From assembly GCF_000026545.1 (NCBI RefSeq), contig NC_011601.1: a stretch of 64,000 nucleotides of DNA; one strand, given 5' to 3'. A program made the position numbers. The DNA comes from Escherichia coli O127:H6 str. E2348/69 (GTDB lineage: Bacteria > Pseudomonadota > Gammaproteobacteria > Enterobacterales > Enterobacteriaceae). Positions 9,001 to 12,000 of this stretch are shown piece after piece (within the stretch, counting starts at the first letter, position 1; every line of letters starts with the position of its first letter).

Positions 9001-12000
9001 CGCCAGCGAGATGTCGCTGCGCTTGATGCCAGATACACGAAGGAATTAGCCGATGCGAGAGCTGAAAATGAAACTCTGCGCGCTGATGTTGCCGCTGGTC
9101 GTAAGCGCCTGCGGGTCAACGCCACCTGCCCCGGTACCGTGCGTGAAGCCACCGGCACCTCCAGCGTGGATAATGCAACCGGCCCCCGACTGGCAGACAC
9201 CGCTGAACGGGATTATTTCATCCTCAGAGAACGGTTGATGACAATGCAGAAGCAGCTGGAAGGGGCGCAGGAATATATCCGCACTCAGTGCACTAAGCTG
9301 GCTTTTTATTATCCGGAGGATACATGAAGAAATTACGGGTAACCGTAGAACCTTTTCAGGGAACAATTCCGTTCCGTATTTTGCAGCGTGGTCGTGTTCT
9401 TGTTGAAGGTTCGTTCAGTGGTAAATGTACGCAATTACACTCCCGGACCTTTCAGGTGAATGCCACGAATGAAGAGCTAACCGTGGAGTGTACGATGAAT
9501 GCCGCTAAATGCCGCATGGTATCCGCTGCATTACAGCCAGTGTGTTGAGCGACCTTATTATCCATGCGCGGTATTGTCGCCGTATTCCTGCATTAACAGA
9601 GACCGCAGCCCGACAGGGAGACTCCTCTGCGCGAGTGTGCGGGGATAATCAAAAACGATACACACCGGGGTTTACCGCGTTAACGGAGCGCGGCGTTGTC
9701 CCCTCATAGTCGCCTGTCCGGTGCGATGGTGGAAGAAACCGAACGTTCATTTCTCGTTATTTGTCATGCTGGCCGGGCGCAGATGCGTTGCATCTGTTGC
9801 CAGCCTTCTCCTGCAGGCTTCAATAACCCACGCTGAAAAGTTACCGGACCCTTTATGCTCAAGGGCGATGTTGATCTGTTCAATTATGTGATTGGGGAAA
9901 CGGATATTGCGGGTTGTGGTTCTGCGGGTCCGGTTTTTCGATGACATATTTATTTCCTTTACTGATTGCCATATGACGGGGATTTTACATGGCTGAGCTT
10001 CGTACACTCCAGAGCAGAATCAAAACACTGAATACCCGACGGGTGAATATTCTGAAGGGGGAGCAGCGTCGTGTCAGTGGCAGTGCACGTGTTTCCCTCA
10101 AGCGTCATATCTGGCTGAGGGACGCCGGGCAGTGCTGTATCTGTGGTCGTGTGGTTGACCTCTGTGACAGTGAACTCGATCACCGAATTGCACTTCAGTT
10201 CGGTGGTGGTAATGAGGAGACGAATCTTTGGACGCTCTGTGCCGAATGCCATCGACAAAAGTCTGCTCGTGAAGCGGCGAGTGGTATGCCGGACCCGACG
10301 CTGCCGGAGGTGTCCGGAGGTAGTGGCAGAGAGGACGACATCATCGGACTGTAACCCAACCCGGGGGGGGTATCATCCGGCGTAAAAAACGATCGCTTTG
10401 GACACCGCGCCCCCTCTCACGCAGAGAAAAAATTCCCGTTTCAGGGCAGTTAACATGTTAACTGGCTGCCCGGGCATTTTTGCGGTTTTTATCTTTATTA
10501 TTCAGTTTGTTGTGCGGAAAAAATGTTAACAGGCTTTTTCAGCAAATGTTAACCGGGCAGCAGTTAACATTTGCGGCATGAGACGCCGGGAAAAATGGGC
10601 TGAACCATACCCGGCTGAGTGCGTTCTGGACCCGGGAGGAGGCTGTGCTGACAACGCAAAAACGAAAATTTGCGCTGGCGCTCATGTCCGGGAAAAACAA
10701 AACAGCGTCAGCCATTGCCGCCGGTTATTCGGCGAAGACCGCCAGGGTTAAAGGCTCGCAGCTGGCAAAAGATCCGGAGGTGCTTGCGTTTATAGCCCGT
10801 AAACAATGCGAGACGGTGGAGGTGGATGAGGTTCCTGTTTACCGGCAGAAAAAATCAGAGCAGGAGGATAAACCCCGTCGCCGTGAGGCGGCTGCAATAC
10901 CACAGCCGGACGAAAACAATCCGGAGATGCCACCGTCCGCGGTGATGTCTCCTGGTATTGAATATATGGAGGATGGTCTTCCCGATCCGGTGAAAGCCAT
11001 GGGGCGGATCCTGGTGGAAAACCTCTGCATTGATCCGAAACTGGCACTGGATGCGGCCTGGCGTCTGGCGCAGTTCACGCACCATAAAAAAGGGGATACC
11101 GGGAAAAAATCGGCAAAAGGTGATGCCGCGAAAAAAGCGGCTAACCGTTTTGCGGTGCCACCGCCACCCCGACTGGTGGTGAATAACGATAATGAGGGCA
11201 ACGGATGATACCTGTATGGAGCACAGCCTGCCCGGACTGGGCAGAGCGCCTGAAAAAGGGGCTGTCGATTATTCCGGATCCGATTTATCCGGACGAGGCC
11301 GCACATGCCCTGGCGATTTTTAAACAACTGCGGATTGTGGATGCACCTGGTAGCCCTACGTTCGGGGAGTCCTGTGCACCGTGGGTGTTTGACCTGGTGG
11401 CGGCCCTGTTTGGCTCCTACGATGCGCAGACCGGTGTACGCCATATCAAGGAAGTTTTTATCCTTATCCCCAAGAAAAACTCGAAGTCCACGCTGGCCGC
11501 GGGGATCATGATGACTGCACTGTTACTGAACTGGCGGCAGGCGGCGGGTTACACGATTCTGGCCCCGACTGTGGAGGTGGCGGCCAACGCCTTCAACCCT
11601 GCCCGGGATATGGTACGACGTGACGATGATCTGGATGACCTCTGCCAGGTACAGACCCATATCCGGACCATCACCCACCGGGTGACAGACACCACCCTGA
11701 AGGTGGTGGCAGCCGATCCGAATACGGTGTCCGGTATCAAGTCCGTGGGTACGCTGATTGATGAGTTGTGGCTGTTTGGCAAGCAGTGCAAGGCGGAGGA
11801 CATGTTACGTGAAGCCATAGGCGGCCTTGCCTCCCGCCCGGAAGGGTTTGTGGTGTATACGACCACCCAGTCGAATGAACCGCCCGCCGGGGTGTTCAGA
11901 CAGAAACTGCAGTACGCCCGGGATGTGCGCGACGGCAAAATTCATGATCCGCACTTTCTGCCGGTGATATTTGAACACCCTCCTGAAATGGTGGAAAGCG

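Follow-up and report, generated by a model that had tools for sequence, protein, structure and literature searches.

A GTTAAC repeat array beside the predicted cohesive end of an HNH-associated Escherichia coli prophage is a candidate small-terminase recognition subsite

A 64,000-nucleotide stretch of Escherichia coli O127:H6 str. E2348/69 (NCBI RefSeq assembly GCF_000026545.1, contig NC_011601.1; hereafter the window) carries the packaging genes of a prophage, and we examine here a repeat array at 10447-10574 that lies upstream of its small terminase gene, terS. The gene order around the array starts with the Rz gene of the lysis cassette (8749-9327) and continues with a small gene on the minus strand (9747..9947) for a protein of the DUF3950 (YlcI/YnfO) family (Pfam PF13132, E 3e-19), which is probably context only and not part of the element. 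On the plus strand follow an HNH endonuclease gene (9989-10354; Pfam PF01844, PHROG 589), a 290-bp intergenic region (10355-10644) that holds the array, terS (10645-11208, with a GTG start), the large terminase gene terL (11205-12866) and a gene for a fused prohead protease and capsid (12930-14867). Both an ATPase and a nuclease domain are present in TerL, which is of the Terminase_1 type (Pfam PF03354 and PF20441, both above cut-offs). An HNH gene directly upstream of terS and terL is the architecture of HNH-associated cohesive-end (cos) systems, and by analogy the HNH protein may act together with the terminase to cleave cos. TerS matches Pfam Terminase_2 over residues 2-57 (36 bits against a cut-off of 26.1) and PHROG 641 (E 2e-68), and its N-terminus aligns with that of the TerS of Salmonella phage FSL SP-016. 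A sequence search against solved structures returned weak matches only, to the SF6 G1P chains 4zc3 and 2cmp (E 0.2-0.8), which we take to be the isolated DNA-binding domain; these matches back up the Pfam assignment and are not taken as proof. By homology, TerS is predicted to carry an SF6/SPP1-like N-terminal helix-turn-helix.

The position of the cut was carried over by homology from phages with mapped ends. PhageTerm analysis of the Shiga toxin 1 (Stx1) phage Lys8385Vzw gave 'cos, 3' cohesive ends, CGCCCCCCCT' (PMC7946995); its record starts with CTCACGCAGAGAAAAAATTCCCG (first bases CTCACGCAG) and ends with ...GGACACCGCCCCCCCT (final CGCCCCCCCT), and this 3' cohesive end corresponds to window 10406-10415. 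Lys8385Vzw belongs to the same phage group as the window, with 97.6% identity in TerL, 95% in TerS and 98.9% over the 285 bp of the intergenic region covered by its record start, and its overhang differs by one base from the window sequence, CGCGCCCCCT (10406..10415, plus strand). We therefore predict a 10-nt 3' overhang there, with nicks at 10415|10416 on the top strand and 10405|10406 on the bottom strand. In a virome contig from a Salmonella-type relative (L127), an Illumina adapter is joined directly to CTCATTCG, the base homologous to the cut. That contig (IMGVR_UViG_3300015186_000014) opens, at 1-33, with the untrimmed adapter CACTCTTTCCCTACACGACGCTCTTCCGATCT, a contamination of the record that nonetheless marks the physical left end of the phage. 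The record of Acinetobacter phage fLi-Aba03 starts at the homologous CGCACGCAC, the top-strand cut position, and that of Burkholderia phage Bcep176 stops 10 nt to the left of this, precisely where the bottom strand is predicted to be cut. Two records that merely start at terL or terS, those of phi330 and of the partial CF53a genome, were excluded as evidence for termini. The initial annotation had proposed 10440-10575 as a candidate packaging site, and this region does lie in the cos locus of an HNH-associated 3'-overhang system, but the cut falls outside it: the cohesive end is 25-34 bp to the left of the 10440 edge, within the intergenic region, so that the homologous mapped ends adjoin the proposed region rather than lie inside it.

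Around the cut we recognise a conserved cos core. Its upstream element is a G8 run of polymorphic length (10363..10370, plus strand), found at the same relative position in the cos regions of E. coli, Salmonella, Pseudomonas, Burkholderia, Acinetobacter, Vibrio and HK97 phages. Just left of the cohesive end stands GGACAC (10400..10405, plus strand), the start of a GGACACCGC block that overlaps this end; either GGACACCGC or TAGACCGC is kept in all clades that have this TerL family. To the right lies the cut-proximal block CTCACGCAGAGAAAAAATTCCCGT (10416..10439, plus strand), with an A6T2 tract at +12..+19 from the cut. Its pattern, C(T/G)CAC/CAT, an A/T tract and CCC, is likewise kept in all clades, including the Vibrio phage Fayden with its unrelated TerS; judged by this conservation, the block would belong to the cos core, and it is an alternative candidate for the DNA that TerS or TerL contacts. 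Among near-identical prophages the G-run length (~6-10 G), 10409 (G/C) and 10414 (C/G) vary, and co-resident prophages may thus have non-identical sticky ends. Between the HNH gene and the G-run, HK97 (L296, 39600-39680) and many SP-016-type loci (for instance L129, L139 and L145) carry a block of AT-rich sequence with both inverted and direct repeats (gaaatcatttcaaatg..., atgagaatgaatc / tgataat..attctcat) that is absent from the window and may be an additional cos subsite.

Downstream of this core, from +32 to +159 and still upstream of terS, lies the array. The 8-mer ATGTTAAC occurs five times, at 10449(-), 10455(+), 10523(+), 10546(+) and 10563(-), with no other copy in the 64 kb, and all palindromes and inverted repeats of 10447-10574 reduce to it. 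Sites 1 and 2 overlap to form the perfect 18-bp palindrome CAGTTAACATGTTAACTG (10447-10464, +32..+49), site 3 stands singly (10523..10530, plus strand), and sites 4 and 5 form the inverted repeat GCAAATGTTAAC-N9-GTTAACATTTGC (10542-10553 / 10563-10574), with 12-nt arms and a 9-nt gap. Sequence reading and a repeat finder thus recover the 18-bp palindrome of the initial annotation, in the position between the HNH and terS genes that it gave; its second inverted repeat, described as 10 bp, is also present (10542-10574), with arms longer than noted. The inverted copies of GTTAAC-TG(G)CTGCCCGG, which had been put about 80 bp apart, were found at 10457-10473 and 10553-10568, and within them a 9/9 core, GCTGCCCGG/CCGGGCAGC, recurs 79 nt apart. 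The repeat clustering is far beyond chance. Of 18 GTTAAC sites in the window, five fall inside the array's 122 bp (10449-10570); when the window was simulated 300 times with a first-order Markov model and each run scored by the largest cluster per 130 bp, GTTAAC never exceeded three (reached in 2/300 runs) and ATGTTAAC never exceeded two.

The T-rich bendable segment that had been noted between the inverted copies is likewise borne out. It forms a T/A-tract spacer at ~10474-10522 (T5 at 10477-10481, T5 at 10486-10490, A6 at 10518-10523) in which GC content falls to 33%. A wedge-model estimate with approximate parameters places the highest curvature, 26 degrees, at 10482 (99.6th percentile of the window), and the spacer is thus predicted to be intrinsically curved. 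The array is followed by a leader to terS (10575..10644, plus strand) with a Shine-Dalgarno sequence, GGGAGGAGG, at 10634-10642, and this leader is nearly invariant among relatives. The idea that 10580-10652 arose by duplication of the cut-proximal block and then diverged was discarded as unsupported, its sole basis being one 13-nt match at 85%. Three of the ATGTTAAC copies open short open reading frames (ORFs) starting with MLTG (10455-10529, 10523-10552 and 10546-10581; 24, 9 and 11 codons), which echo the MLT N-terminus of TerS, none with an obvious Shine-Dalgarno sequence.

Close relatives hold the array under marked constraint. A 182-bp test segment of the region, 100% identical to E. coli E2348/69, is found in 1275/5426 complete E. 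coli genomes at 3003 places, with a median of 1 per genome and up to 7 copies in O157 strains, and the region is 92-99.8% identical to long-tailed Stx-converting phages such as BP-4795, 2851, 1717, YYZ-2008 and Lys8385Vzw, the last of which has the same five ATGTTAAC copies. All 50 unique upstream regions of the E. coli type contain five copies. Across 54 distinct E. coli-type relatives, all five 8-mers are invariant, as is 10518-10530, and the palindrome 10447-10464 shows a sole substitution, C to T at 10447 in one relative; variation concentrates instead in the core, 10357-10446, including two positions of the overhang, so that the array segment varies less than the cos core next to it. The arms outside the 8-mers do change, and without compensation: a C.A mismatch at 10471/10555 is present in 50/54 relatives and an A.G mismatch at 10543/10573 in 10/54, while the perfect GCTGCCCGG/CCGGGCAGC pairing of the window is a minority state (3/54). 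Since the cores are fixed and the arm changes uncompensated, the conserved unit is the short motif rather than the potential to form a hairpin. A selected hairpin or cruciform was accordingly rejected as a candidate, despite a stable fold, and a structured RNA or intrinsic terminator was also set aside, there being no covariation, no Rfam match at E <=1 and no terminator-like site in 10355-10645.

Insertion sequences (IS) recur in the cos-terS spacer of these prophages: ISEc20 (IS110 family) near the G-run (~10367) in PPompW prophages, an IS66-like element after homologous 10558 in strain Ec-U3, and IS1A before 10590 in strain TB354; in phage 1717, IS629 sits in terL. Such insertions are expected to disable packaging of the prophages concerned.

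A second group of relatives suggests how the array arose. The TerL and TerS of Salmonella phage FSL SP-016 are 83% and 48% identical to those of the window, the TerS N-terminal domain being ~72% identical by our count from the alignment. In this phage and 62 distinct IMG/VR relatives, the HNH-terS spacer is ~106 bp long and homologous to window 10356-10462; 10463-10644 is missing, and the first palindrome alone is kept. The segment proposed in the initial annotation is thus absent in large part from phages with an 83%-identical TerL, while its left end persists. The SP-016-type terS starts with ATGTTAACAGCGCAG, 39 nt past the cut, where ATG-TTA-AC aligns with window 10455-10462, and the palindrome 10447-10464 aligns with TGTAAAC-ATG-TTAACA at this start. 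The window terS start, GTGCTGACAACGCAA, is the homologue of the SP-016-type start, and its GTG reads GTGCTGACA, a degenerate homologue of ATGTTAACA. From this comparison, the E. coli lineage has ~190 extra bp (10463-10644) and four further copies of a start-codon motif, and we infer from the alignments that the ancestor would have had just one TGTTAA..TTAACA inverted repeat, which overlapped the start codon of terS.

Farther relatives were sampled as clades through TerL and TerS homology and by targeted look-ups, with the TerS family recognised by an M(A)LT N-terminus, an AAGY(S/A) helix-turn-helix and a BLASTP match to the window TerS at E <=7e-9. In six clades with a TerS of this M(A)LT..AAGY(S/A) kind, the interval from the cut to codon 4 of terS holds 1-5 copies of GTTAA(C/A) or TTAACA. 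The motif is found in 62/62 loci of the SP-016 type; it reads TTTTGTTA-ATGG(C/T)G-TTAACAG in 57/57 of the Pseudomonas CF53a type and TTTTGTTA-ATGGCT-TTAACAG (TGTTA-ATGGCT-TTAACA) in all of the Burkholderia PR5/Bcep176 type but the divergent locus L286. Phages of the Acinetobacter fLi-Aba03 type have three non-coding GTTAAA direct repeats ~11-13 bp apart (44/44) as well as TTAAC in codons 3-4; a subclade of four sequences has lost the codon TTAAC and keeps the three non-coding repeats. Pseudomonas phage IME307 has three perfect GTTAAC with 13-bp spacing. In the Pseudomonas and Burkholderia phages, TTTTGTTAATGGNNTTAACAG is the most conserved part of -60..+45, and the TTA-ACA codons are unchanged while neighbouring third positions vary. 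Their hosts are GC-rich and rarely use TTA, so that coding alone does not explain the conservation of TTA-ACA.

Where the TerS differs, the motif is missing: it is absent from HK97, Vibrio phage Fayden, Xanthomonas phage OP1 and Stenotrophomonas phage Silvanus. The TerL proteins of Fayden, OP1 and Silvanus are nevertheless homologous to that of the window, and the cos core (G-run, (G/T)(G/A)ACACCGC or TAGACCGC, CTCAC/CATTCGCA, A/T tract) is visible in HK97, Fayden and Silvanus. The motif is also absent from Pseudomonas phage D3, which is of the same genus as IME307 and whose TerS has a different N-terminal sequence; D3 stands outside the TerL and cos-core comparison. On these comparisons, the cut-proximal core (G-run, GACACCGC, CTCACGCAGAGA with its A-tract) appears to track TerL, usually with an adjacent HNH gene, whereas the GTTAA(C) motifs appear to track one TerS family and not TerL. 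This is our main comparative argument: a motif that follows TerS is best read as a TerS recognition word, and a core that follows TerL as serving TerL and the HNH protein.

We interpret 10447-10574 as probably being a cosB-like TerS recognition subsite of cos, as distinct from the cleavage site. Invariant 8-mers with uncompensated arm changes fit a protein-binding motif better than a hairpin, and with the homologous end at 10406-10415, the array starts at +32 on the terS side, the side that is packaged first; lambda cosB and the HK97 TerS site (+15..+29) occupy this side and range as well. We envision that the concatemer is nicked ~32-41 bp upstream of the array to leave the 10-nt 3' overhang CGCGCCCCCT, as homology to the mapped phage predicts. 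The N-terminal helix-turn-helix domains of a TerS oligomer would bind the GTTAAC cores at +32..+49 and +105..+159, and the curved T-tract spacer could let sites 1-2 and sites 3-5 reach one TerS assembly, which would position TerL and the HNH protein on the nick site. Packaging would then run rightward into terS, and TerS at the next array and cos might help to arrest the motor, as in HK97. During evolution, the E. coli Stx-phage-type lineage would have multiplied the start-codon repeat and shifted terS 190 bp away. Several observations weigh against this interpretation. The spacing of the array sites is irregular (8, 68, 23 and 15 bp), and no IHF consensus WATCAANNNNTTR with <=1 mismatch occurs in 10400-10660, the best having 2 mismatches. 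Motif and terS start codon overlap in most clades, and a constraint at the level of translation is possible there. SP-016-type phages manage with one imperfect palindrome, and the four extra copies are therefore not needed by the basic mechanism. The position of the HK97 TerS site is taken up here by the conserved A-tract block (+10..+24), which is possibly the real TerS contact. Finally, the five-copy array co-occurs with DUF3950.

The A-tract block deserves weighing as the TerS site in its own right. HK97 TerS binds one asymmetric 15-bp site at +15..+29, and the A-tract is needed (PMC11331095, PMC9410871). If the window behaved likewise, TerS would contact 10416-10439 and the GTTAAC array would be an accessory (a bending element, a termination signal or a host-factor site) or have no role; CTCACGCAGAGA-A6T2-CCC at +1..+24 is indeed conserved in every clade, and SP-016-type phages package with almost no array. 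The block is, however, equally conserved next to the unrelated TerS of Fayden and thus tracks TerL rather than TerS, HK97 itself has merely a loosely comparable T-tract site at +15..+30 and a TerS unrelated to that of the window (BLASTP E ~8), and the independent GTTAA(C) arrays of the Acinetobacter and IME307 lineages would be left unexplained. We regard this alternative as unlikely. Quite unlikely, too, is an action of the motif on RNA or translation, as a start-codon hairpin or an operator for terS, with the extra copies serving as decoy starts or leader structure. Such a role would suit an inverted repeat that brackets the terS AUG in most clades, the MLTG frames opened by three window copies and a 245-nt leader that folds more stably than shuffles (z = -3.2), yet the arm pairs are broken in the relatives with no compensatory change, the direct repeats of the Acinetobacter phages and IME307 (~11-13 bp spacing) cannot form hairpins, the actual start codon in the window has lost the motif, and Rfam gives no match.

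Similar scrutiny applies to explanations in which the array has nothing to do with packaging. It might be a non-functional remnant, either of a MITE (miniature inverted-repeat transposable element)-like insertion or of a slipped or tandem duplication of the terS 5' end that became fixed in this lineage by chance: 10463-10644 is absent from SP-016-type relatives, terminal inverted repeats are present (10455-10473 / 10553-10570), the repeat finder detects the 11-bp direct repeat GCAGTTAACAT at 10446 and 10560, and insertions of IS1, IS66 and ISEc20 mark the cos region as a hotspot. Every copy examined, however, lies in a prophage HNH-terS context, in a copy number that fits the number of prophages; the segment is more conserved than the cos core in the 54 variants, with invariant motif cores; and the independent arrays in Acinetobacter and Pseudomonas phages argue for selection, all of which makes a remnant improbable. 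A mobile element or MITE in the strict sense was rejected, since no dispersed copies were found at unrelated loci among the places listed or examined and the partial matches are IS1 or IS66 interruptions. The initial annotation had also raised an operator for the adjacent DUF3950 protein, to which another phage or host regulator may be added. Palindromic sites suit a dimeric repressor, and DUF3950 stands beside 76/80 E. coli-type loci and 0 in the other clades, matching the distribution of the five-copy array. The core palindrome is nonetheless kept in four other clades without DUF3950 within the sampled flanks, and lambda, whose homologue (86.5% identical over residues 1-52) sits 200-350 bp from lambda cos, has no ATGTTAAC and just one GTTAAC in 1.8 kb around cos. 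In the window, ~460 bp separate the DUF3950 promoter region (~9948-9990) from the array, the closest GTTAAC on the upstream side lies at 9679, and a promoter scan of the intergenic region gave one weak minus-strand match only, in the array and built from two TTAACA motifs. This part of the initial annotation therefore does not hold up well, and we consider an operator highly improbable.

Returning to TerS recognition, we tentatively extend it to a broader and more doubtful proposal, namely that GTTAA(C) is possibly the shared recognition word of the whole PHROG 641 TerS family, with an ancestral site overlapping the terS start codon. If true, one family word would span HNH-associated cos phages of E. 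coli, Salmonella, Pseudomonas, Burkholderia and Acinetobacter; the overlap with the start codon could couple DNA recognition to terS expression; and lineages would tune packaging by copy number and spacing, from 1 to 5 copies, with the array of the E. coli Stx phages as the most expanded. For this phage group the cohesive end has been published before (PMC7946995), and terminase-binding repeats beside cos are a well-known class. The 2021 report by Zhang et al. gives the 10-nt end sequence and does not describe a downstream array or TerS site (PMC7946995), and the literature that we searched, including for GTTAAC with small terminase, yielded neither the repeat array nor its link to a TerS family. 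The cos module is carried by many Stx1-, Stx2a- and Stx2c-converting phages and by other lambdoid prophages. Its nick site and candidate TerS word offer a mutable target for asking how Stx phage genomes are chosen for packaging, which defective prophages or satellites remain mobilisable, and how TerS specificity evolves apart from TerL and HNH.

Several features elsewhere in the window bear on its phage context. In 11205-17664 the order is terS, terL, protease-capsid fusion and portal, while HK97 has terL, portal, protease and capsid. A single ORF of 645 aa joins an S78 protease to an HK97-type capsid. The portal (893 aa, ORF 14983-17664) matches PF04860 on residues 86-414 and has a long C-terminal extension, which contains at 16605-17210 tandem 162-nt (54-aa) repeats with 87-89% mutual identity. 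Upstream, a 617-aa ORF (5019-6872) joins DUF1737 to a SASA (sialate O-acetylesterase) domain and DUF6645 and is reminiscent of the NanS-p-type esterases that characterise the late regions of Stx phages. A 1550-bp IS, whose transposase has Tnp_DNA_bind, DDE_Tnp_1 and Tn5-type dimerisation domains, is present in two inverted, 100%-identical copies (3100-4649 and 41392-42941) that enclose 36.7 kb, including the whole packaging and morphogenesis region, an arrangement that resembles a composite transposon or an invertible segment.

Among known packaging systems, phage lambda offers a picture of a repeat array beside a nick. Lambda cosB consists of R3-I1-R2-R1 between cosN and Nu1: short motif copies in mixed orientation, with a bent segment between them, bound by a helix-turn-helix small terminase. 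The window resembles it in having motif copies between the nick and the small-terminase gene, on the first-packaged side, with a spacer predicted to be bent. Lambda differs in its 12-nt 5' overhang, made without an HNH partner, and in a bend that IHF makes at I1, where the window has predicted T-tract curvature and no IHF consensus was found; the R-site sequences and the small terminases differ as well, with no match between the window TerS and lambda Nu1.

In SPP1 and SF6, G1P binds pacL and pacR boxes in a headful (pac) mechanism with no defined cohesive end or HNH partner. The window TerS falls into Terminase_2 like theirs, with an AAIAAGYS helix-turn-helix, and both arrangements place repeated boxes and intrinsically bent DNA beside or inside the terS 5' end; the window cut, in contrast, would be sequence-specific with 3' overhangs. 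P22 packages by the headful mechanism from a pac site inside gene 3. Its likeness lies in the ancestral TGTTAA..TTAACA, which overlaps the terS coding start in the SP-016, Pseudomonas and Burkholderia relatives; the P22 site itself is unrelated, and in the window the motif no longer lies within coding sequence.

HK97 offers a counterpart for the cut itself. Its HNH protein, gp74, stimulates cos cleavage (PMC9410871, PMC11331095), and the window shares with it an HNH-associated cos between the HNH gene and terS, a 10-nt 3' overhang, a G-run ~45 bp upstream of the cut and, in compact relatives, a terS ~40-50 bp downstream; HK97 TerL is taken to be of the Terminase_1 type from the annotation of Silvanus, which pairs PF03354 with a BLAST hit on a terminase of the HK97 group. 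The two differ in what follows the cut, as the window has its array at +32..+159, while HK97 lacks GTTAAC and comes nearest with a GTTGAC before the ATG. The array of the window, read as a probable TerS subsite, would set a helix-turn-helix TerS beside the recently solved complex of HK97 TerS with DNA.

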